DNA of 29,160 nucleotides, from IMG/VR virus record IMGVR_UViG_3300020166_000084, positions 1 to 29,160 of that record. One strand, 5' to 3'. Origin of the DNA: a virus. Taxonomy: Duplodnaviria; Caudoviricetes. Below are positions 1 to 20,774 of this stretch, piece by piece (the stretch's first letter is position 1; the number at the start of each line of letters is the position of its first letter). The notes under the pieces were generated by a model. That model saw only the letters and a list, made by a program, of their open reading frames with translations. It had not been told where the DNA came from and did no database searches. Position numbers and translations under genes: made by a program.

Positions 1-201
1 ATCCAAGGAGCAACAGGAGCACAAGGAGCTGTTGGAGCTAAAGGAGATCAAGGAGATCAAGGAATCCAAGGAGTAACAGGAGCACAAGGAGCTGTTGGAG
101 CAACAGGTCTTAAAGGAGATCAAGGAGATCAAGGAATCCAAGGAGCAACAGGAGCACAAGGAGCTGTTGGAGCTAAAGGAGATCAAGGAGATCAAGGAAT
201 C
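1..201 (+). repeat. Near-identical 63/72-nt tandem units within collagen 0
   Basis: atccaagg recurs at 1, 64, 136 and 199 (spacing 63, 72, 63 nt = 7, 8, 7 triplets). Confidence 0.8.
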
Positions 202-555
202 CAAGGTATTCAAGGAGTTCAAGGAGCTGTTGGAGCTAAAGGAGATAAAGGAGATAAAGGAGATACTGGAGCTCAAGGAGCAACAGGAGCTCAAGGAGCA
301 GTTGGTCCTACTGGAGCACAAGGAGTAGACGGAACAACAGGATCTACTGGAGCACAAGGATCACAAGGAGCTCAATTATCTTTAATCGCATCTAGTGGTA
401 TTGATATTAGTAATAATGTATTAGGAGGAACAACAGACGTTATTGATTTAGATTCATCTGGAAAAGTAGTTTTATCAACAAAAACTATCGATTTCGGAGG
501 AGGAACAACAATAGTAAAAGATGATTCAACTGGAGACATTCTATTTAACTTCTAA
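1..555 (+). CDS. Collagen-like (Gly-X-Y) fibre protein, 5'-truncated
   Basis: Not in the ORF track (no start codon in the window). Frame 1 reads [20 protein letters not shown]... as uninterrupted Gly-X-Y to about nt 372, then a ~60-aa non-collagenous C-terminus ending ...STGDILFNF, with TAA at 553-555. Confidence 0.9.
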
Positions 556-604: not shown

Positions 605-2947
605 ATGGCAATGAAATTTAATGTAAACACTGGTGTATTTGAAGCCGACATTTTTGAAGAAGGTACAACAAATACCGGTTTAAATCCATCACAAGGTACT
701 GTATTTGCTAATGCTTATTTTGAAGAAATAAATGCCGGGGTCCCCGTATTGGGGGCCCAGGGTACTGGTGTAGTATATGCTAGTTATGAATTTGATGGTG
801 TTATGAAAATGGATTCTAATTCTACAATTGGAAACAACCAAATATTAACAACAAATAATTTTGTAGCAAGTAATTACCCAGATCTTAAAGGAGCTATAGG
901 ACATATTGGTTTAATAGGAGCACAGGGAGCTACAGGTGAAAAAGGGTTTCAAGGTTCAACTGGATCTACGGGGTTTAATGGTATTCAAGGTACTAAAGGA
1001 GCTCAAGGATCTAATGGCCTAAAGGGATCTGATGGACCTGACGGTGACATCGGTTATCAAGGAGCACAAGGTTCTCAAGGAGATAGAGGTTATCAAGGAG
1101 CAACTGGTTTAAATGGTTATAAAGGATCACAAGGAGCTACTGGAATTAATGGAGCAGTCGGTCCAAGAGGTTATCAAGGAACTCAAGGAGCTATTGGTAA
1201 TAATGGACCACAAGGAACTCAAGGAGCTAAAGGTAATCAAGGATCAACAGGATCAAAAGGAGCAGACTCAGATAGAGGAGCTCAAGGAGCTGTTGGAGAC
1301 AGAGGTTATAAAGGACCAACTGGATTATCAGGAGACAGAGGAGCACAAGGAGCTACTGGAGATAAAGGATTTATAGGATTAAAAGGAAATAATGGAGCCC
1401 AAGGAGCTGTTGGTAATACTGGTCTTACTGGACCACAAGGACCTCAGGGATCTACTGGAGCAAAGGGTTTTCAAGGAGCTATAGGTACTAAAGGTAATCA
1501 AGGTGGAGCTGGTGATACAGGTACACAAGGAGTTACTGGAAAACCAGGTTATCAAGGAGGAATAGGAGATCAAGGAAATAATGGACCACAAGGTTCTACT
1601 GGAGGAGTTGGTACTAAAGGAGCCCAAGGATCTCAAGGATCTACTGGGCCAATCGGATTTAAAGGATCACAAGGATCTACCGGTATTATAGGAGACCAAG
1701 GATCTACTGGACCAAGAGGACCTCAAGGATCTCAAGGATCTACCGGAGCTACTGGAAACATTGGACCTGTTGGAACTCAAGGATCTGCCGGATTAGGCGG
1801 AAATAGAGGACCACAAGGATCACAAGGAGCTACTGGACCTAAAGGTTTTGCTGGAGCCCCTGGATTTAAAGGTATTAAAGGAGACCAAGGATCTGGAGGA
1901 CCAAGAGGACCTCAAGGATCTCAAGGATCTACCGGAACTACTGGAAACATTGGACCTGTTGGAACTCAAGGATCTGCCGGATTAGGTGGAAATAGAGGAC
2001 CACAAGGATCACAAGGAGCTACTGGACCTACAGGATTTAAAGGATTTATCGGACTCAAAGGTCTTAAAGGAAACCAGGGATCTACTGGACCAAAAGGAAC
2101 TCAAGGAGCTCAAGGAGCTGAAGGAGCCGGTGGAAACACTGGACCAGTCGGAACTCAAGGAGCCGCCGGAGGTGGTGGAAGTAGAGGACCACAAGGATCG
2201 CAAGGAGCTGACGGAGCTTATGGATTTAAAGGATTAACCGGACACAGAGGACCTCAAGGATCTCAGGGTGGAAGCGGACCAAGAGGACCCCAAGGATTAG
2301 AAGGAGATTATGGATTTAAAGGACCAACTGGACCTGTTGGAAATCAAGGAGCTAACGGATTCCAAGGTTATAAAGGATATATTGGAATACAGGGATCTAC
2401 TGGACCAAAAGGTTATATAGGTTTTAAAGGTATTACTGGAGAACTTGGTTTTAAAGGAGCAACTGGAGCAACTGGAGTTCAAGGTTATAAAGGACCAATT
2501 GGACCTAAAGGAAATCAAGGAACTGCAGGACCAAAAGGAAATCAAGGAACACCCGGGCCTTTAGGACCTAAAGGTATTACCGGACCAACTGGACCACAAG
2601 GAGGATCAGGAGCAAGAGGACCTCAAGGAAATCAAGGAGGACAGCCGGCAACAACTGGAGCTGGAGCACAAGGTTATCGAGGAGTTCAAGGAAATCAAAT
2701 GGCTGACGGAGCACAAGGAGCAACCGGAGCTGTTGGTAATCAAGGAGGAGCAGGAGCCACAGGTAGTGCTGGAGCACCAGGACCAAGAGGACCAAAGGGA
2801 GCTACAGGACCATCAGTTGGAGGATTAACTGGACCACAAGGGGCTAAAGGAATTCAAGGTCTTAATGCAGCTAATGGAACTGGAACAACTGGAACATTAT
2901 ATCACAATTTTGGTTCGTCATCCGTTAGTAACGGAAGGGTTAACTAA
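605..2947 (+). CDS. Collagen-like fibre protein, chain 1 (780 aa)
   Basis: 95-aa N-terminal domain, Gly-X-Y from G96 to about residue 759, short C-terminal motif GTTGTLYHNFGSSSVSNGRVN. Confidence 0.93.
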   Translation: MAMKFNVNTGVFEADIFEEGTTNTGLNPSQGTVFANAYFEEINAGVPVLGAQGTGVVYASYEFDGVMKMDSNSTIGNNQILTTNNFVASNYPDLKGAIGHIGLIGAQGATGEKGFQGSTGSTGFNGIQGTKGAQGSNGLKGSDGPDGDIGYQGAQGSQGDRGYQGATGLNGYKGSQGATGINGAVGPRGYQGTQGAIGNNGPQGTQGAKGNQGSTGSKGADSDRGAQGAVGDRGYKGPTGLSGDRGAQGATGDKGFIGLKGNNGAQGAVGNTGLTGPQGPQGSTGAKGFQGAIGTKGNQGGAGDTGTQGVTGKPGYQGGIGDQGNNGPQGSTGGVGTKGAQGSQGSTGPIGFKGSQGSTGIIGDQGSTGPRGPQGSQGSTGATGNIGPVGTQGSAGLGGNRGPQGSQGATGPKGFAGAPGFKGIKGDQGSGGPRGPQGSQGSTGTTGNIGPVGTQGSAGLGGNRGPQGSQGATGPTGFKGFIGLKGLKGNQGSTGPKGTQGAQGAEGAGGNTGPVGTQGAAGGGGSRGPQGSQGADGAYGFKGLTGHRGPQGSQGGSGPRGPQGLEGDYGFKGPTGPVGNQGANGFQGYKGYIGIQGSTGPKGYIGFKGITGELGFKGATGATGVQGYKGPIGPKGNQGTAGPKGNQGTPGPLGPKGITGPTGPQGGSGARGPQGNQGGQPATTGAGAQGYRGVQGNQMADGAQGATGAVGNQGGAGATGSAGAPGPRGPKGATGPSVGGLTGPQGAKGIQGLNAANGTGTTGTLYHNFGSSSVSNGRVN
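1709..2290 (+). repeat. 189-nt (21-triplet) super-repeat, about 3 copies
   Basis: ggacca(aga/aaa)gga at 1709, 1898, 2087 and 2276; the first two copies are nearly identical. Confidence 0.9.
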
Positions 2948-2988
2948 AATATTATATTAAACATAAGAATTAAAAAAATAAAATAAAC

Positions 2989-5145
2989 ATGGCTAAACTT
3001 AAATTAGGAACTGAATTAGAAAATGATCTTATTCTCCATGCCGGTATTTTAAATAGTACTAATTATCCGCAATTCGTTGGACAGCAAGGTGCTCAAGGAT
3101 CTCAAGGAGATCTTGGATCTAAAGGATCTCAAGGAGCTACTGGTTCTGGAGGAGATAAAGGATTTCAAGGAAATCAAGGTTCTTTAGGATCTACTGGTAA
3201 CAATGGATATCAAGGATCTACTGGAGCTAAAGGTTCTCAAGGTTCTCAAGGTTCTTTAGGTAATAAAGGACCTCAAGGAGCTACTGGATCTGAAGGAGAT
3301 AGAGGATCTCAAGGATCTAACGGAGCTACTGGTTTCGAAGGAAACATAGGATCTCAAGGATCTACTGGCTCAACAGGGCCTGTTGGAGACCAAGGAGCTG
3401 TTGGAGATACTGGATTTAAAGGAGCCAATGGTGCTACTGGATTTACAGGATTTAAAGGAGCAACTAGTGCAACTGGACCAAAAGGATCTCAAGGATCACA
3501 AGGATTTACAGGATTTAAAGGAGCAACTAGTACAACTGGACCAAAGGGTTATCAAGGATCTCAAGGATTAAAAGGATTTACTGCTGCAACTGGACCAAAA
3601 GGATATACAGGATATATTGGATCAACTGGTTCTACTGGAACTGCAGGTTCTCAAGGAGCAACTGGAGCACAAGGAGCTAAAGGATCAACTGGAGCTAAAG
3701 GTTATACTGGAGCAACAGGATCAGAAGGTTTTCAAGGAGTACAGGGTAGTAAAGGACCCCAAGGAGCTGCAACAGGGGCTGCCCTTACGGGTTATAAAGG
3801 ATATATCGGATTAAAAGGTTTTACTGGAACTGCAGGTTCTCAAGGAGCACAGGGAGCTACTGGAGCCCCTGGTTATGAAGGATTTGTTGGAATTTCAGGA
3901 TCTCAAGGAGGAACAGGATCAACTGGAGACGGTGGAGATAAAGGATTTATCGGATTTAAAGGTTCTGATGGACCAGGAGGTTATAAAGGATATATTGGAT
4001 TAAAAGGTTCTACTGGACCTGGAGGTTCTCAAGGAACTCAAGGTTCTCAAGGAGCTCAGGGTTATGAAGGATTAATCGGAACTGCAGGTTCTCAAGGAGG
4101 TACAGGATCAACTGGACCTGGTGGAGATAAAGGATTTATCGGATTTAAGGGTTCTGATGGACCAGGAGGTTATAAAGGATATATTGGATTAAAAGGTTCT
4201 ACTGGACCTGGAGGTTCTCAAGGAGCACAAGGTTCTCAAGGAGCACAGGGTTATAAAGGATTTATCGGAATTTCAGGATCTCAAGGAAATACAGGATCAA
4301 CTGGACCTAGTGGAGATAAAGGATTTATCGGATTTAAAGGTTCTGATGGACCTGGAGGTTACAAAGGATATATTGGATTAAAAGGAGCTGTTGGAACAAC
4401 CGGAGGTCAAGGATCTCAAGGTGTAAGAGGACATCAAGGAGCTGGAGGAGCAGCTGGTAGTACTGGACCACAGGGGGTAACAGGAGTAAAAGGAAATCAA
4501 GGAGCTCAAGGTTATATAGGATTTAAAGGAGCTGGAGGACCAAGAGGTTTTCAAGGAGCACAAGGATCTCAAGGAAACCAAGGGATTGCAGGAAGTCAAG
4601 GTTCTCAAGGAGCACAAGGTTACGAAGGAACAAGAGGATATCAAGGAGCTGGAGGACCACAAGGATCAAGAGGATCTCAAGGTTATACTGGACCACAAGG
4701 TATAGTTGGTATTGGTGGACCTCAAGGAGCTCAAGGAGCTGCTGGACCTACTGGATATCAGGGAATTACTGGATCACAAGGATCTGGAGGACCAGGTGGT
4801 TATAAAGGTTTTAAAGGAGTAAATGGACCTGTTGGAAATACTGTAGGAGCTGGATTCCAAGGAGTTCAAGGTTATAAAGGACTAAACGGACCTGCTGGAC
4901 CAACCGGACCAACAGGTTATAAAGGACCAAACGGACCAACAGGTTATAAAGGACTTTTAGGTTTTCAAGGAAATCAAGGAAATACAGGATTAACTGGATC
5001 AACTGGAGCCGGACCACAAGGAGCTCAAGGAGCTCAAGGTTCTAATGGTGCATACGGAACAGGAGGAATGAATAACGTGATGGGATTCTTTGATGACAAC
5101 GTCGGTAACGCAGTTAACGTTCAAAATGGTTTTTGTAACTTTTAA
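2989..5145 (+). CDS. Collagen-like fibre protein, chain 2 (718 aa)
   Basis: 30-aa N-terminus (MAKLKLG...ILHAGILNSTNYPQFV), Gly-X-Y from G31 to 692, C-terminal motif GMNNVMG...VNVQNGFCNF. Confidence 0.93.
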   Translation: MAKLKLGTELENDLILHAGILNSTNYPQFVGQQGAQGSQGDLGSKGSQGATGSGGDKGFQGNQGSLGSTGNNGYQGSTGAKGSQGSQGSLGNKGPQGATGSEGDRGSQGSNGATGFEGNIGSQGSTGSTGPVGDQGAVGDTGFKGANGATGFTGFKGATSATGPKGSQGSQGFTGFKGATSTTGPKGYQGSQGLKGFTAATGPKGYTGYIGSTGSTGTAGSQGATGAQGAKGSTGAKGYTGATGSEGFQGVQGSKGPQGAATGAALTGYKGYIGLKGFTGTAGSQGAQGATGAPGYEGFVGISGSQGGTGSTGDGGDKGFIGFKGSDGPGGYKGYIGLKGSTGPGGSQGTQGSQGAQGYEGLIGTAGSQGGTGSTGPGGDKGFIGFKGSDGPGGYKGYIGLKGSTGPGGSQGAQGSQGAQGYKGFIGISGSQGNTGSTGPSGDKGFIGFKGSDGPGGYKGYIGLKGAVGTTGGQGSQGVRGHQGAGGAAGSTGPQGVTGVKGNQGAQGYIGFKGAGGPRGFQGAQGSQGNQGIAGSQGSQGAQGYEGTRGYQGAGGPQGSRGSQGYTGPQGIVGIGGPQGAQGAAGPTGYQGITGSQGSGGPGGYKGFKGVNGPVGNTVGAGFQGVQGYKGLNGPAGPTGPTGYKGPNGPTGYKGLLGFQGNQGNTGLTGSTGAGPQGAQGAQGSNGAYGTGGMNNVMGFFDDNVGNAVNVQNGFCNF
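3790..4390 (+). repeat. 189-nt (21-triplet) super-repeat, about 3 copies
   Basis: (g/a)gtggagataaaggatttatcggattt at 3931, 4120 and 4309. Confidence 0.9.
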
Positions 5146-5192
5146 TAACTAATAACTTTAATAAATAATAAAATAAAATAAAATAAAATAGA

Positions 5193-7328
5193 ATGGCTAA
5201 ATTAAGAACAGGATCTCTCATATCAGGCGTATCTAACTTTTTACATGAAGGCAACTTCAACCCTAATAATTACACGTATTTTACAGGTAATCAAGGTGAT
5301 AAAGGAGCTACTGGAGAAAAAGGAACGACTGGATCTGGAGGATTTAAAGGAGCCCAAGGTTCTAAAGGAGCAACAGGATTAACTGGAGCAACTGGTGATA
5401 GAGGTTTTCAAGGAGCTATAGGAAATAGCCCTACAGGACCTACTGGATTAAAGGGAGCAATTGGAGTAACACATACAGGATATAAAGGATCACAAGGTTC
5501 TACCGGAGCCGGCGGAGACAGAGGTTTTCAAGGAGCCCAAGGTTCTACATTAACAGGTTACACTGGATATAAAGGAGCTCAAGGTATTACAGTAAAAGGA
5601 TATCAAGGAGCAAAAAGAGAAAGAGGTTTTCAAGGAGCAACTGGTGATACATTAAATGCTTATACTGGAGATACTGGAGCTAAAGGTTATCAAGGAGATC
5701 AAGGATCACAAGTTGCAGCTTTCAGAGGAGATCAAGGAGCTATTGGAACACAGGGTTCTCAAGGAGATCTTGTTAGAGGAGTACAAGGATCACAAGGAGC
5801 ACAGGGAACTAAAGGTTTTAAAGGTTCACAGCCTACTGGTTTTACTGGAAATCAAGGATCAACTGGTGAAAGAGGAACTCAAGGTTCTTCTCCAAAAGGA
5901 AATCAAGGAGCAATAGGATTAATTGGACCAACAGGTTTAAAAGGTTCTTCTCCAAGAGGAGCCCAAGGAGCACAAGGAGCCCAAGGAGATAAAGGATTTA
6001 AAGGAGCACAGCCAACTGGACCAGGTGGAGATAGAGGAAATCAAGGAGCACAAGGACTTAAAGGAGCACAACCAGGAGGTTATAAAGGAATTAAAGGAGC
6101 ACAAGGATCACAAGGATCACAAGGTTCTTCTCCAAGAGGAACACAAGGAGCTCAAGGAGCTCAAGGTTATATAGGATTTAAAGGAGCACAGCCTGGCGGA
6201 AACACCGGAGCTAGAGGACCACAGGGAGACCAAGGAGCTAAAGGAGCTCAACCTGGAGGTTATACTGGATTTAAAGGAGCACAAGGATCACAAGGATCAC
6301 AAGGTTCTTCTCCAAGAGGAACACAAGGAGCTCAAGGAGCTCAAGGTTACATAGGACTTAAAGGAGCACAACCAACAGGAGCAACTGGATCTAGAGGACC
6401 ACAGGGAGATCAAGGAGCTAAAGGAGCTCAACCTGGAGGTTATACTGGATTTAAAGGAGATCAAGGACCCCAAGGACCCCAAGGTTCTTCTCCAAGAGGA
6501 ACACAAGGAGCCCAAGGACCCCAAGGTTATAAAGGATTTATAGGTTTAACGCCTACCGGGCCTCAAGGATCTCAAGGAGCTGGAGGTTATAAAGGATTTA
6601 TTGGACCATCACCAACAGGTTATAAAGGACCTATAGGTAATATAGGACCTCAAGGAAATCAAGGTTCTTCTCCAAGAGGACCAAATGGAGCAGCAGGACA
6701 AATAGGTTCTACTGGACCAAAAGGAGCTCAACCCGGAGGAAATAGAGGACCTCAAGGAAGTCAAGGTTCACAGGGTGTAGTTGGAAATTCTCCTACTGGA
6801 CCAAAAGGTTATCAAGGAACTGAAGGAGCCCCTGGTGAAAGAGGAACAGGACCTGTAGGTTATAAAGGACCTCAAGGAACTCAGGGATTACTTGGAAATT
6901 CTCCTACTGGACCAAGAGGACCTCAAGGAGCACAAGGTTATACAGGTTTTAAAGGACCAACTGGTGCAAGAGGACCTCAAGGACAAAGAGGAGTTCAAGG
7001 ATATATTGGAGTTTCAGCTGGAGCTGGGCCAAGAGGACCTCAAGGAGCTACTGGACCAAGAGGAGTTCAAGGAGGAAGAGGAAATCAAGGAGCTAAAGGA
7101 CTTAATGGATTCCAAGGAGATACTGGAGCAGGTAATGGAACTGGACCAACTGGACCACAAGGAATTAAAGGAGCATCAGGATCAAGTTATACTGGATTTA
7201 ACGGTACTTTATATTTTAATCAGTATGATGTTGCATTCCAGCATGGTTTAGTAGTAGCTATAACTAACACCGGTGGAGGACCACCACCTCCAGGAGGAGG
7301 AGGAGACGAAGGTGGAGGAAGATTATAA
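5193..7328 (+). CDS. Collagen-like fibre protein, chain 3 (711 aa), periodically interrupted
   Basis: 31-aa N-terminus (MAKLRTG...FLHEGNFNPNNYTYFT), Gly-X-Y with 27 one-residue-deletion interruptions, C-terminal motif GFNGTLYFN...FQHGLVV and a Gly/Pro tail. Confidence 0.93.
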   Translation: MAKLRTGSLISGVSNFLHEGNFNPNNYTYFTGNQGDKGATGEKGTTGSGGFKGAQGSKGATGLTGATGDRGFQGAIGNSPTGPTGLKGAIGVTHTGYKGSQGSTGAGGDRGFQGAQGSTLTGYTGYKGAQGITVKGYQGAKRERGFQGATGDTLNAYTGDTGAKGYQGDQGSQVAAFRGDQGAIGTQGSQGDLVRGVQGSQGAQGTKGFKGSQPTGFTGNQGSTGERGTQGSSPKGNQGAIGLIGPTGLKGSSPRGAQGAQGAQGDKGFKGAQPTGPGGDRGNQGAQGLKGAQPGGYKGIKGAQGSQGSQGSSPRGTQGAQGAQGYIGFKGAQPGGNTGARGPQGDQGAKGAQPGGYTGFKGAQGSQGSQGSSPRGTQGAQGAQGYIGLKGAQPTGATGSRGPQGDQGAKGAQPGGYTGFKGDQGPQGPQGSSPRGTQGAQGPQGYKGFIGLTPTGPQGSQGAGGYKGFIGPSPTGYKGPIGNIGPQGNQGSSPRGPNGAAGQIGSTGPKGAQPGGNRGPQGSQGSQGVVGNSPTGPKGYQGTEGAPGERGTGPVGYKGPQGTQGLLGNSPTGPRGPQGAQGYTGFKGPTGARGPQGQRGVQGYIGVSAGAGPRGPQGATGPRGVQGGRGNQGAKGLNGFQGDTGAGNGTGPTGPQGIKGASGSSYTGFNGTLYFNQYDVAFQHGLVVAITNTGGGPPPPGGGGDEGGGRL
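5583..6900 (+). repeat. 60-nt (20-aa) periodic unit with a 180-nt higher-order repeat
   Basis: G-x-x-x-x pentamers at 5583, 5643 ... 6843, exactly 60 nt apart; aaggttcttctccaagagga at 5941, 6121, 6301, 6481 and 6661. Confidence 0.92.
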
Positions 7329-7354
7329 TCTACTCAATCTTAGATAAAAAAATT

Positions 7355-7380
7355 AAAGAGGACTTCGGTCCTCTTTTTTT
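7355..7380 (+). terminator. Rho-independent terminator with cUUCGg tetraloop
   Basis: aaagaggac-ttcg-gtcctcttt followed by a T run, just after the last collagen gene. Confidence 0.92.
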
Positions 7381-7405
7381 ATGCATAAAAATAAAAAGAA
7401 TAAAT

Positions 7406-7432
7406 AAACTAAATACATTTATTTAATATAAT
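7406..7432 (+). promoter_or_regulatory. Putative phage 'middle' promoter, AAAC-N17-TATAAT
   Basis: AAAC at 7406-7409 and TATAAT at 7427-7432; the same spacing occurs at five other upstream sites. Confidence 0.7.
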
Positions 7433-7453
7433 AATTAAACAATTTTTAGTAAT

Positions 7454-8377
7454 ATGCATTTAACAAAAAACCAAAATGTTAGACTTCATGTTGATTCTGT
7501 TAATAGAGTAAATGAATCATACCAAATCCAAGGTTGGATTGGAACAAACATAAGTGCTATAGTTGATATTCATATTGATGGATATTCTATCGTTCCATCA
7601 TTTTCAGAAAGAGAAGACGTTAAACAAGTATATCTAAACTTAGAAGGAGATTCTCTAGGTTTTAATATATTAGTTAATAAAATAGATATTAATAAAGATA
7701 TTTCTATAATTTTAGAAAATGGCGAAACCATATCAAACGTATACTGTTTTTCTGGAGATGTCGTTGCAGGTTCAGGTTTCAATAGAACTGATAAGGATGT
7801 TATCGTAGTAGATAATTTTTATGCAGATCCAGATTTAGTAAGAGAATACACTATGAACAATCTTGAATTCAAACCTTCAGGATATCATAAAGGACAAAGA
7901 TCAACTTCTAAGTTTATATTAGAAGGTACTAAAGAAAAATTAGAAGAAGTTATTGGTAAAAAAATAAAAAACTGGAACTATGAAAGATATGCAAATGGTG
8001 TTTTTCAGTTTTGTACAGCAGATCAACCTATAGTGTACCATGTTGATACACAAATGTATGCTGCGATGGTTTATTTAACACCAGACGCTCCACCTCAAAC
8101 AGGTACTGCAATGTATAGAAGCAAGGTAAATGGAATAAATGTATTTCCAACTCCTGAATCAATGTCAACCAAAGAATATGCAGATGCTTTTACAGGAACA
8201 AATGACGGTATGAATTTTTACGATGGAACTCTTTTTGAAAAAATAGATGATGTCGGAAACGTATATAATAGATTAGTAATTTTTAATTCATCACAAATAC
8301 ACGCAGCAACAGAATACTTTGGAGATGCAATCGACAACGCTAGATATTTCCACATGTTCTTCTTTGATGTAGAATAA
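7454..8377 (+). CDS. 2OG-Fe(II) oxygenase (DUF6445-like) with an extra N-terminal beta domain
   Basis: IVVDNFYADPD, H-x-D (YHVD), AAMVYLTP, NRLVIF..IH and a distal R form the DSBH facial-triad pattern. The N-terminal ~110 aa carry GW..RxDV..GF, reminiscent of Ig-like domains in glycan enzymes. Confidence 0.75.
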   Translation: MHLTKNQNVRLHVDSVNRVNESYQIQGWIGTNISAIVDIHIDGYSIVPSFSEREDVKQVYLNLEGDSLGFNILVNKIDINKDISIILENGETISNVYCFSGDVVAGSGFNRTDKDVIVVDNFYADPDLVREYTMNNLEFKPSGYHKGQRSTSKFILEGTKEKLEEVIGKKIKNWNYERYANGVFQFCTADQPIVYHVDTQMYAAMVYLTPDAPPQTGTAMYRSKVNGINVFPTPESMSTKEYADAFTGTNDGMNFYDGTLFEKIDDVGNVYNRLVIFNSSQIHAATEYFGDAIDNARYFHMFFFDVE

Positions 8378-8390
8378 AATTTAAGATTTA

Positions 8391-10289
8391 ATGCAAACAA
8401 TAAACATTATTACAAGATGTACCAGGCCAAATAACCTGCCTAAAGTTATGGATTCTGTATTTCATAAAGTGCCTAGTAATTTAAAAATTAACTGGCATGT
8501 TTTATTCGATACAGTTCCTTTAAAAGATATTGATGCTGGAATACTTTCCACTATAAGTTCAAATAATACCAAAATTCATTTTGTTAGAGGAGGAGACGGT
8601 GGTTTATTATATCCACAATCAACTAAATTAATTAAAACATTTGATAAAGATTCTTGGTTTTATTTTTTAGACGACGATAATATAATCCATGAAGATTTTT
8701 ATAAACATGTTGGTGGAAATACTATTCTAGAAAATAATAGCAATCATTTAATACATGTAGTTTCTCAACAAGTTGACGGTAAGGACTTTACTGGATTAGA
8801 TGTTAGAGTTGCAACTCCAGAAAATACAGGCTTTCAGAAAACAGATATTGCTCAAGTAATTATTAAATCAGAGTTAATCGATAATTATTCTTTTGGGGCA
8901 AGTTACGCTGCTGATGGATATTTTATTCAAGCAGTCCTTGATGAACATCCTGAATACTTCTCTTATCACAACTTAGTGTTAAGCCATTATAACTACTTAG
9001 AAAAAAAAGCAGCCCCTAAGTTGCCTAGAATATTATACATTGGTGAGGGAACTCCTGATTTAAAAAGTAAAAAATGGCTAAATTATGAGTCCGAAGATCT
9101 TGATGTTAGATATTTAGAAGATGATCAATTTATAAGAATTACAGTTGCTGAATTTAATCCTGATATGATAGTCACAAGAGGAGAACATTGGGCAGAATTT
9201 AGAAATGTAGCTAATATGCCACTTCAATTTCGTAAAAAATGGATCCATGTAGATGTTAAAGACGGCGTAGACTCAGTTAAAGATATAGGGGAATGGGCAT
9301 ATAATTGTTCAATGCATGCAATGTTAAATACTGATAATTTAGATGATCCAAATTTAATATCTTTCTTTACTCCAATTTATAATACTGGACAAAAACTAAG
9401 AACAACTTACAAATCAGTAGCTGCACAAACTTATGAAAATTGGGAATGGATTTTAATGAATGATTCTACTGATGGTGGAAAAACTCTTAAAATTGCAGAA
9501 GAAATTGCAGCTCAAGATCCAAGAGTTAAAGTATATGATTTGAGAAAAAAATCAGGTGGATGTATTGGAGAGGTAAAATGGAGAGCATGTTCAATGGCTA
9601 CTGGATATATTTTAGCTGAATTAGATCATGATGATATTTTAGCAGATACATGTGCTCAAGATTTACATGATGCTGCACAAGCTCACCCAGAATGTGGATT
9701 CTTTTTTGGAGATACTGCAGAGATTTATGAAAATGGAAAACCACATACATACCCCCCCGATGGTTCGTTTGCATTAGGATATGGAAATTACAGAGATGAA
9801 AAATATCATGACATGGATTTAATAGTATGTAATCAACATAACATTAATCCTAAAACAATTAGACATATTGTTGGAGTTCCTAATCATATTAGAGCATGGA
9901 GAAGATCTACTTATTTTGAAATAGGAGGACATAATAGAAGTTTAACAGTTGCTGATGATTATGAACTAGTGATTAGAACTTTCTTAAACACGATAATGTG
10001 TAAAATTCCAAAGCTTTCTTATATTCAATTAATATACAATAACGCAGGTGGAAGAAATACTCACGATTTATCAAGAGAAGATATACAGAGAAGAACAAGA
10101 ACAATTTCCGATTATTATAATGAGGATATTAAAAATAGATTTGAAGAGCTTGGTGTTCATGACTGGGCTTACGAAGAAAACCCAGATTACCCAATACATT
10201 CAAAATCCAGATTTGGAAAGGATGAAGGTGCAGTAAACATAACATATATAAAAGAAAATGAAAACATACACATTCCAACCGGAAACTAA
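8391..10289 (+). CDS. Multidomain glycosyltransferase with two GT2/GT-A domains
   Basis: N-terminal domain IITRCTR...FLDDDN (DxD); C-terminal domain FTPIYN...NDSTD...ELDHDD...DDYEL. Confidence 0.85.
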   Translation: MQTINIITRCTRPNNLPKVMDSVFHKVPSNLKINWHVLFDTVPLKDIDAGILSTISSNNTKIHFVRGGDGGLLYPQSTKLIKTFDKDSWFYFLDDDNIIHEDFYKHVGGNTILENNSNHLIHVVSQQVDGKDFTGLDVRVATPENTGFQKTDIAQVIIKSELIDNYSFGASYAADGYFIQAVLDEHPEYFSYHNLVLSHYNYLEKKAAPKLPRILYIGEGTPDLKSKKWLNYESEDLDVRYLEDDQFIRITVAEFNPDMIVTRGEHWAEFRNVANMPLQFRKKWIHVDVKDGVDSVKDIGEWAYNCSMHAMLNTDNLDDPNLISFFTPIYNTGQKLRTTYKSVAAQTYENWEWILMNDSTDGGKTLKIAEEIAAQDPRVKVYDLRKKSGGCIGEVKWRACSMATGYILAELDHDDILADTCAQDLHDAAQAHPECGFFFGDTAEIYENGKPHTYPPDGSFALGYGNYRDEKYHDMDLIVCNQHNINPKTIRHIVGVPNHIRAWRRSTYFEIGGHNRSLTVADDYELVIRTFLNTIMCKIPKLSYIQLIYNNAGGRNTHDLSREDIQRRTRTISDYYNEDIKNRFEELGVHDWAYEENPDYPIHSKSRFGKDEGAVNITYIKENENIHIPTGN

Positions 10290-10848
10290 CGACGCCCAAA
10301 ACTATTATTATTTTAATAATGGATTTTCAAGTTCAGAATTAGATCTTATATCTAAAGGAGTAGAGAATATTCCATTTGAAATAGCAACAACCGCAGCGGG
10401 AATTGATGAGGTTAGGAAATCAAATATTAAATGGATTCCTCAAACTGAGGAATGGGAATGGTTGTATTATAAATTAATGGATTTTGCTCAGAGAGCTAAT
10501 AATGAAATGTGGAGATTTGATTTAAAATCAACACCTGAATTAATACAATATACAGAATACCACGGAACTGAAAATGGAAAATATGATTGGCATCAAGATC
10601 TTGGCCCAGGAGAATTATCCATAAGAAAGATTTCTATGACCGTTCAATTATCAGATGATCATGAATATACCGGAGGAGACTTAGAATTCTGGCACGGAGG
10701 AACTTCATTAGAAGATACAGATTCAGCTCCTAGAGGAAAAGGAACAGTTGTAATCTTTCCTAGTTACCTTAATCACGCAGTTAAGCCAGTTACATCTGGC
10801 GTTAGAAAATCATTTGTTCTTTGGTTAGGAGGAGGACACTTTAAATAA
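10258..10848 (+). CDS. 2OG-Fe(II) oxygenase, PKHD/prolyl-4-hydroxylase-like
   Basis: WHQD, RKISMTVQLSD, YTGGDLEF, FPS..HAVKPVTSGVRKS (HxD...H...R-x-S). Confidence 0.88.
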   Translation: MKTYTFQPETNDAQNYYYFNNGFSSSELDLISKGVENIPFEIATTAAGIDEVRKSNIKWIPQTEEWEWLYYKLMDFAQRANNEMWRFDLKSTPELIQYTEYHGTENGKYDWHQDLGPGELSIRKISMTVQLSDDHEYTGGDLEFWHGGTSLEDTDSAPRGKGTVVIFPSYLNHAVKPVTSGVRKSFVLWLGGGHFK

Positions 10849-20039: not shown

Positions 20040-20774
20040 ATGGCAAAATTAAAATCATTTGAACAGTTTTTATCTGAAATGGATAGAACTGAAGAAATTC
20101 AACAAGACGTTGTTGAACTAGGAGCTCCAGATGAAAAAGGTGCTGAAGAAGCTCAAGCTGACTCAGAAACTGTACAATCTGAAAGTGACGAAGTTAAGGA
20201 ATTAACTGAAGAAACAGTAGAAGAAGGTAACGCCTTTGGAGACGCTGTTAGAAAGGCTAAAGAAGCTGGTGAGGAAGAATTCGAATTCGAAGGAGAAACT
20301 TACAAGGTTGAAGAAGAAGTTGAAGCTGAAGAAGCAACAGAAGAAGTTGAAGCTTTAGAAGAAACTGAAACAACTGAAGAAGCTGTAGAAGAATCTGCAA
20401 CAGAAGAAACTGAAGAGGTTGAAGAAACTGTAGAAGAAGCTGTAACAGAAGAAGCTGAAGAAGAAGCTGAAGAAGAAGCTGTAGCAGAAGAATCTAAAAC
20501 AGTATCTGAAAGTTTAAAAGAAGTTTATGAATTGTGTAAAAGCGAAGCTAAGGCTTACGAAGAAGACGCACATGACGAACACACAGTAGAATCTTACATG
20601 AAAGAAAACGCTGCATTAATCGCTGCATTAGCTGCTCAATCTTTAAAAGAAATGAAAGAAGAATATGCAGTAGAAGCTTATGAAGCTGCTTGTAATTCTA
20701 TGATAGAATCTTACACTAACAAAATGAATGAGATGAAAGAATCTGATAGCGCACATGACGCTGAAGAAGCTTAA
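20040..20774 (+). CDS. Very acidic Glu-rich protein, probable prohead core/internal protein
   Basis: MAKLKSFEQFLSE N-terminus, many (L/V/I/M)-x-E sites, low-complexity EEAE tracts. Confidence 0.6.
   Translation: MAKLKSFEQFLSEMDRTEEIQQDVVELGAPDEKGAEEAQADSETVQSESDEVKELTEETVEEGNAFGDAVRKAKEAGEEEFEFEGETYKVEEEVEAEEATEEVEALEETETTEEAVEESATEETEEVEETVEEAVTEEAEEEAEEEAVAEESKTVSESLKEVYELCKSEAKAYEEDAHDEHTVESYMKENAALIAALAAQSLKEMKEEYAVEAYEAACNSMIESYTNKMNEMKESDSAHDAEEA

Follow-up and report, generated by a model that had tools for sequence, protein, structure and literature searches.

Three tandem phage genes predicted to encode the chains of one heterotrimeric collagen helix

Introduction

Three tandem collagen genes lie in a 29,160-nt stretch of phage DNA (the window). 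We propose that their products, chains A, B, and C, form a single 1:1:1 heterotrimeric helix, B-A-C, of ~222 triplets and 190 nm contour length. Judging from sequence, we give this reading a probability of about 0.9. In such a collagen helix, B would be the leading, A the middle, and C the trailing strand.

Mixed-chain collagen is regarded as an animal design, and a 2022 review (PMC8968730) calls prokaryotic collagens homotrimers, in agreement with what the original prediction said of characterized bacterial collagens. The prediction also stated that its author knew of no described phage heterotrimeric collagen. None, phage or prokaryotic, was found in the literature searched (chiefly open-access articles, main texts), within which the three-chain mixed design is described only for animal collagens. 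The accessible sections of PMC7048315, PMC11869133, and PMC7029224 describe no collagen heterotrimer, and heterotrimers of Pasteuria Pcl are raised only as possible in the available portion of PMC7743900.

Results

Organization of the three genes

Three open reading frames, all on the + strand, were confirmed at 605..7328: chain A (605..2947, 780 amino acids, the predicted middle strand), chain B (2989..5145, 718 amino acids, the predicted leading strand), and chain C (5193..7328, 711 amino acids, the predicted trailing strand). Directly 3′ of the chain C gene, an intrinsic-terminator–like hairpin of 9 bp followed by a T run (7355..7384, + strand) was recognized by consensus match only.

All six of the related motifs reported to precede and follow the helices are present, and both the N- and C-terminal motifs align among A, B, C, and their relatives. 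Chain A has ~65 extra N-terminal residues. Its N-terminal region (605..892, + strand) belongs to no known family and is likely the virion anchor; the last 30 residues of this region, the shared N-motif, are homologous to the entire N-termini of B and C. In B, the 30-residue motif (2989..3081, + strand) stands at a constant spacing from the first Gly, and the N-terminal motif of C lies at 5193..5288 (+ strand). Chain A ends in a short hairpin-like motif and chain C in a Gly/Pro tail. The N- and C-motifs gave no PDB sequence match, and a likeness to the T4 foldon is unsupported. A match of the A N-terminus to Phage_head_fibr in the ESM Atlas scored 0.79, which is chance level, and was rejected.

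The PF01391 collagen repeat was matched in all three chains (Pfam E values of 2e-85, 8.5e-80, and 6.5e-42 for A, B, and C). The Pfam search found no other domain in them: NC1, NC2, gC1q, C-terminal Peptidase_S74, PfN, PCoil, and PfC are all absent by this measure. A recount of the helices reproduced the original figures exactly. Between the anchor motifs, A, B, and C have 664, 662, and 636 residues, made up of 220, 220, and 194 three-residue units and 2, 1, and 27 two-residue units (one-residue deletions), which gives 222, 221, and 221 triplet-equivalents (223/223/222 in the count used across trios). The internal period is 63, 63, and 60 residues, though the X/Y sequences differ among the chains. 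In the DNA, a 189-nt block (21 triplets) is repeated 3.3 times in A (1618..2250, + strand) and another of the same length 3.2 times in B (3790..4385, + strand). A 180-nt block in C (60 amino acids, or 21 triplet-equivalents) is repeated 3.4 times (5941..6544, + strand) and coincides in axial position with the blocks of A and B.

Proline occupies the Y position only 4, 1, and 1 times in A, B, and C, which makes prolyl hydroxylation an unlikely stabilizer. Threonine is frequent there (38, 44, and 23) and is a possible glycosylation target.

Side-chain pairing between chains

Matched length alone would be expected of a bundle of three homotrimers as well as of a single mixed helix; side-chain pairing can tell the two apart. 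According to the accessible parts of two studies, cross-chain Lys-Asp/Glu pairs of heterotrimers follow i>i+2, i>i+2, and i>i+5 (PMC11923368), with axial pairs joining Yaa(n) to Xaa(n+1) and lateral pairs joining Yaa(n) to Xaa(n) (PMC12533406). We scanned nine ordered chain pairs at 25 offsets, pooling six trios. K/R(Y)-D/E(X) pairs peaked at +1 for B>A (2.4-fold), +1 for A>C (2.7-fold), and +2 for C>B (2.5-fold), and Q-F/Y pairs peaked at 0, 0, and +1 for the same steps. The offsets +1, +1, and +2 around the cycle B>A>C>B equal the published leading/middle/trailing geometry (PMC11923368; axial and lateral rule, PMC12533406). Which strand is called leading, middle, or trailing depends on alignment of the first glycines; the cyclic order alone needs no such anchor. 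Among self pairs in the six trios, none reached 1.5-fold for salt pairs at +1, but A>A cation-pi pairs at +1 were mildly enriched (1.7-fold), which counts against the single mixed helix.

In the window, the BAC arrangement makes 27 salt pairs compared to 9.8 ± 1.8 in shuffles, and none of 2000 shuffles reached 27 even though each took the best of six chain orders. The anchored register ranked first of 3721 slides. The combined score was 210 (97 ± 5 in shuffles); it includes the lateral Gln class, which was added after the pair scan had been viewed and which the salt-only count excludes. Of the 33 Arg at Y, 30 found a partner, as did 27 of the 36 Asp/Glu at X. When C was indexed by residue count, the signal vanished, falling from 23 to 5 for A>C and from 21 to 4 for C>B. 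Each deletion in C therefore corresponds to a full step along the helix.

If each gene formed its own homotrimer and three such homotrimers bundled side by side, the bundle would select for matched length. Characterized prokaryotic and prophage collagens are indeed homotrimeric (PMC8968730; available text of PMC3368898), and a lone gene with the terminal motifs of the trio occurs in loci L121/L122. Pair counts point elsewhere: with K-D/E and R-F/Y pairs taken together, BAC scores 57, the next of the 27 compositions 29, and AAA, CCC, and BBB only 10, 9, and 5, at or near shuffle level. Lys followed by Asp/Glu of its own chain (KGD/KGE) is nearly absent from the three chains of the window trio, at 1 of 32 in A, 0 of 36 in B, and 1 of 32 in C. 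Moreover, the offsets sum to 4, which is the closure of a single helix, and the lengths match in triplet-equivalents, not in residues, since C is 15 to 35 residues shorter in matched trios. We consider a bundle of homotrimers very improbable.

A mixture of chains that includes two-chain helices (such as A2C or B2C), with ABC as only one product, draws on the two-chain compositions that reach about half of the BAC score (CAC and AAC, 29 each) and on the existence of length variants affecting C alone. Against such a mixture, the signal is present at all three interfaces (9, 10, and 8 K-D/E pairs), and every two-chain composition was negative for the window in a trained model, so we give it an equally slim chance.

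The single B-A-C helix was also the best composition in relatives: BAC ranked first of the 27 in seven of seven orthologous loci by untrained counts and in 17 of 17 orthologous trios by a leave-clade-out trained score. In L004, a trio with reordered genes, the best composition was CAB. In insert-bearing and C-short trios, the register is intact up to the break and then resumes shifted by the extra length. Of 87 imperfections in A and B, 70 lie no more than one unit from an interruption in C (42 to 57% expected). Over the family, axial Arg-Tyr (164 versus 21.5 expected), axial Lys-Asp (200 versus 60), and lateral Gln-Tyr (257 versus 99) pairs are enriched, as are axial Lys-Asn, Ile-Pro, and Thr-Ala. 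Cross-chain complementarity, together with the coordinated indels and register-preserving inserts described below, thus argues for the 1:1:1 assembly originally predicted.

Length matching in related trios

Locus searches gave 18 complete trios, including that of the window (L105). By raw counts, about half of them were matched (within three units in nine); in six raw mismatches, inserted globular domains had been counted as triplets. Weighing against the mixed helix, L009 (266/262/258) needs small loops in A to keep register, and L091 (195/194/190) needs them in A or B. Over 12 lineages with lengths of 165 to 279 units, 10 match within five units once single-chain globular inserts are removed, whereas 20,000 permutations across lineages gave 0.27 matches on average and never more than 5; the lineages are related (71 to 88% nucleotide identity in compared pairs), so these counts are not independent, and only the three indel events below are. 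The match is thus beyond chance, and triplet-equivalent lengths co-vary across orthologous trios, in the test that had been proposed, with correlations of 0.995 to 0.999 over the 12 lineages. Left out of this analysis were near-duplicates (L085, L086, L092, and L099), a strain variant (L101), L096, in which a C-terminal intein-like domain misplaced the C anchor, and L108, in which A is incomplete.

Three indels affect A, B, and C together: 189/189/180 nt between the window and L001, 126/126/120 nt between L003 and L086, and 378/378/360 nt between L112 and L109. For the latter two, the triplet index of the indel is identical in A, B, and C. In the comparison of the window with L001, inferred positions differ among the genes, which carry tandem copies there, and the B gap splits into 45 + 144.

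Similarities among the chains might instead be leftovers of gene triplication or of gene conversion between paralogs, with no functional coupling; homologous termini and the tandem arrangement of the genes speak for this. Yet none of 21 chain pairs shows an excess of identical triplets at offset 0, complementarity runs in one direction of the cycle only, and on three separate occasions an indel affected A, B, and C at a single axial position. Of the explanations considered, we find this one the hardest to credit.

Chain lengths did not vary independently, save for three shortfalls of whole repeat blocks in C alone (L101, 180 nt; L108, 120 nt; L095, 120 nt), which speak against coupled lengths. 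These could be either real or the result of assembly collapse. The L101 gap begins at an 86-nt perfect repeat. For gene C of L001, six raw reads were available, contigs broke at the repeat copies, and no 180-nt skip was listed.

Single-chain globular inserts of 154 to 169 residues occur in six trios. Chain B carries one in L010 and chain A in L096, L097, and L099; L091/L092 have two different inserts, one in A and one in B. They cost about zero to three register units. Replacing them by placeholders (zero to six units, fitted to BAC in six loci) yields lengths such as 188/188/187, 222/222/221, and 195/194/190. The common insert was modeled as a beta-sandwich (pLDDT of 75) resembling SPRY and legume-lectin folds (TM of 0.45 to 0.6). 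The second insert of L091 (4252-4713; 154 amino acids, chain B) looks like a carbohydrate-binding module by eye and had no significant PDB sequence match.

A Hint/intein-like domain prolongs chain C at its C-terminus in L009 (5972-8935), L010 (6656-8938), and L096 (12560-15523), where the window has only the Gly/Pro tail. For L096, and only there, a weak PF14890 match was obtained; the motif in L009 and L010 is one that we take to be Hint/intein-like. The reordered L004 trio (2765-7817) has three short N-termini.

The prediction had counted single genes occurring alone against itself. One with the same terminal motifs does exist, but in a different phage (L121/L122). At L122 10001-11827, it is a single GPT-rich collagen gene adjoining oxygenase, tail sheath, and tube genes. 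We consider it a candidate ancestral homotrimer, and since this lone gene of another phage carries both terminal motifs, triplication of a gene for a homotrimer is the likely origin of the family.

Relatives were also sought through the N-terminus of A. With residues 1 to 98 as a query, 0 of 97 candidates scored. A profile search of 1.84 billion representatives returned eight matches, six being short A-like N-termini and two unrelated repeat proteins. No cultured phage in INPHARED matched two A N-termini, and GTDB genomes gave no match (0 of 32 stretches).

Periodic deletions in chain C

Deletions in C are mostly of the G-x-S-P-T-G type. Their spacing is seven units in 21 of 26 cases in the window and in 252 of 312 over 12 loci. 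With 7/2 symmetry, a chain finishes a superhelical turn every seven triplets, so that with one deletion per turn, all kinks would face the same way. The missing residues of C may thus kink or hinge the helix at regular intervals and toward one side. When 25 kinks of 10° to 35° were placed along a toy path, it curled to 20 to 69 nm under this symmetry; under 10/3 symmetry, it stayed 140 to 149 nm long. The originally proposed fiber of ~190 nm therefore holds as a contour length (222 × 3 × 0.286 nm), but the end-to-end distance is possibly much shorter if the deletions in C bend the fiber.

In favor of curling, L004 pairs +1 in one chain with −1 in another at units 56, 70, 84, 98, 112, and 126, and the unrelated trio L082 also has a 14-unit period. 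Against it, proline-poor stretches favor 10/3 symmetry according to the accessible part of PMC13138384, and A, B, and C are proline-poor; in L039 and L041, the spacings are 12. On balance, curling of the fiber by the periodic deletions has a little under an even chance. Alternatively, the deletions could serve as flexible hinges or expose Ser/Thr-Pro sites to the adjacent glycosyltransferases.

Other phage collagens

A fourth collagen gene, gene 0, lies upstream of the trio and is not part of it; the window start cuts it, leaving its 3′ end (1..555, + strand). In this gene, which spans 6707-9949 in L001, Lys is followed by Asp/Glu of the same chain in 53 of 53 cases in L001, 82 of 82 in L086, and 8 of 13 in the short copy of L087. 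Its length (41 to 407 units) is independent of the trio and differs even in near-identical strains (337 versus 351 and 280 versus 290). Gene 0 is likely a homotrimer and served as an internal control. Between forward-strand collagen genes of S-CAM7, S-CRM01, DSL-LC01, and two huge phages, no cross-gene pairing was found; two rows with z > 4 in these five records involve shadow ORFs antisense to a single gene and were set aside.

The unrelated trio L082 (1811-9940) has different termini and a PA14 insert in the third gene. With offsets picked by the trained score, its pairing cycle closes at 3 + 59 − 58 = 4 with 54 pairs (shuffle maximum of 23), and its period is 14 triplets. Another unrelated trio, L041 (1799-6873; 128/128/127), has a C-terminal Peptidase_S74; the trained score weakly gave offsets 1, 1, and 2, and there were no K-D or R-aromatic pairs. 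Its variant L050 has lengths of 128/128/92. Length-matched trios or pairs with Peptidase_S74-type C-terminal chaperones were seen in L041, L050, L036, and L039 (128/128/127; 86/87; 61/63).

Genomic context

Downstream of the trio are genes for a DUF6445 protein, a GT2 glycosyltransferase, and a 2OG-Fe(II) oxygenase (7454..10848, or to 12966 with a second GT2; + strand). These are possible fiber-modifying enzymes, and GT2 homologs adjoin collagen genes in many phage loci. The window carries baseplate-like genes. Wider context was taken from the record of a relative, G001 (175 kb, 66% complete), which encodes a T4-like baseplate wedge and hub, a head-tail adaptor, polymerase, UvsX, and helicase. 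The source would thus be a T4-like jumbo phage. A search for gp23 gave no match, and controls were equally without a match. One protein of the baseplate region of the window has its best cultured matches in Flavobacterium, Tenacibaculum, and Chryseobacterium phages at 24 to 30% identity, a weak hint in its sequence at a Bacteroidota host. The L001 trio is present in seawater runs, and six metatranscriptome runs contain 0.86 to 0.92 of its words, which by itself does not establish transcription.

From PHROG tail-fiber matches, which any collagen gives, and from gene context, the trio is very probably a virion fiber.

Discussion

Our results suggest that the helix itself would specify which chains associate and in what register, through axial pairs (Lys-Asp/Asn and Arg-Tyr/Phe) and lateral ones (Gln-Tyr/Phe), while pairing of a chain with itself is nearly absent. 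By analogy with EPclA, as presented in the available part of PMC3368898, folding likely starts at the short C-terminal motifs, and the fiber, which would be displayed on the virion of the T4-like jumbo phage, is likely anchored through the N-termini. The fiber probably serves host or surface binding, since relatives hang single SPRY/lectin-like domains on one strand; the chains of the window are without such domains. A broader scenario has phages independently evolving programmable ABC heterotrimers with a helix-long pair code, a per-turn deletion that curls a spring-like 190-nm fiber, lectin-like domains on single strands, and at least three unrelated families of terminal domains. As a whole, we put it forward tentatively, at odds somewhat short of even.

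C1q has three tandem genes. Like it (A/B/C), animal collagen IV (alpha3-alpha4-alpha5) and collagen IX consist of three distinct length-matched chains. In the accessible text of PMC11923368, animal heterotrimers have cross-chain Lys-Asp/Glu pairs at i+2, i+2, and i+5 that are lost on misalignment, as here, and unequal interruptions are proposed to kink the helix, which can be compared with chain C. Unlike them, the phage trio is without NC1, NC2, or gC1q and nearly without Pro at Y, Arg-Tyr and Gln-Tyr pairs dominate, and one strand has a strictly periodic deletion. By its sequence, the trio is not a member of the collagen IV, IX, or C1q families, though it appears to work like their heterotrimers.

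EPclA/EPclB of Escherichia coli O157:H7 form a prophage fiber with a collagen stalk between terminal domains that is stable without hydroxyproline; as described in the same part of PMC3368898, EPclA differs in being a trimer of a single gene product with PfN, PCoil, and PfC, none of which Pfam found in the trio. Scl1/Scl2, BclA, and Pasteuria Pcl share the long Gly-X-Y stretches, Thr/Gln/Lys at Y, and stabilization by charge pairs, whereas bacterial collagens of the Scl1/Scl2 and BclA type are homotrimers according to the 2022 review (PMC8968730). In designed ABC peptides (GRACE/SCEPTTr), axial pairs of the charge, cation-pi, and amide-pi types likewise fix the register (PMC12533406); those peptides are short, synthetic, and hydroxyproline-rich, whereas the phage trio is natural and has 220 triplets. 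In T4-like pelagimyophages and cyanomyophages, the host recognition cluster similarly has collagen repeats together with concanavalin-like domains and glycosyltransferases in the neighborhood of structural genes, but the accessible portion of PMC7029224 proposes no mixed-chain assembly, and the nearest cultured matches of the window protein infect Bacteroidota.

If our reading is true, the trio provides a natural, likely hydroxyproline-independent heterotrimer producible in E. coli, which collagen engineers lack. From the thousands of natural pairs aligned in the family, the side-chain register code could be read, and the pair test is applicable to any collagen gene cluster. No crystal structure exists of a helix interrupted in one chain only, according to the available text of PMC11923368; the trio makes the effect of such an interruption directly testable.

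Several further repetitive or acidic proteins were noted. A very acidic, Glu-rich protein of 244 amino acids in the window (20040-20774) had no Pfam or PHROG match. Another collagen in G001 (L128 6938-13075; 2046 amino acids, ~600 triplets) has its best self-offset at +1 and is likely a homotrimer. Upstream of the collagen cluster in L001 (1103-3127) lies a 674–amino acid acidic coiled-coil repeat protein, 590 amino acids long in G001, which is possibly another fiber.
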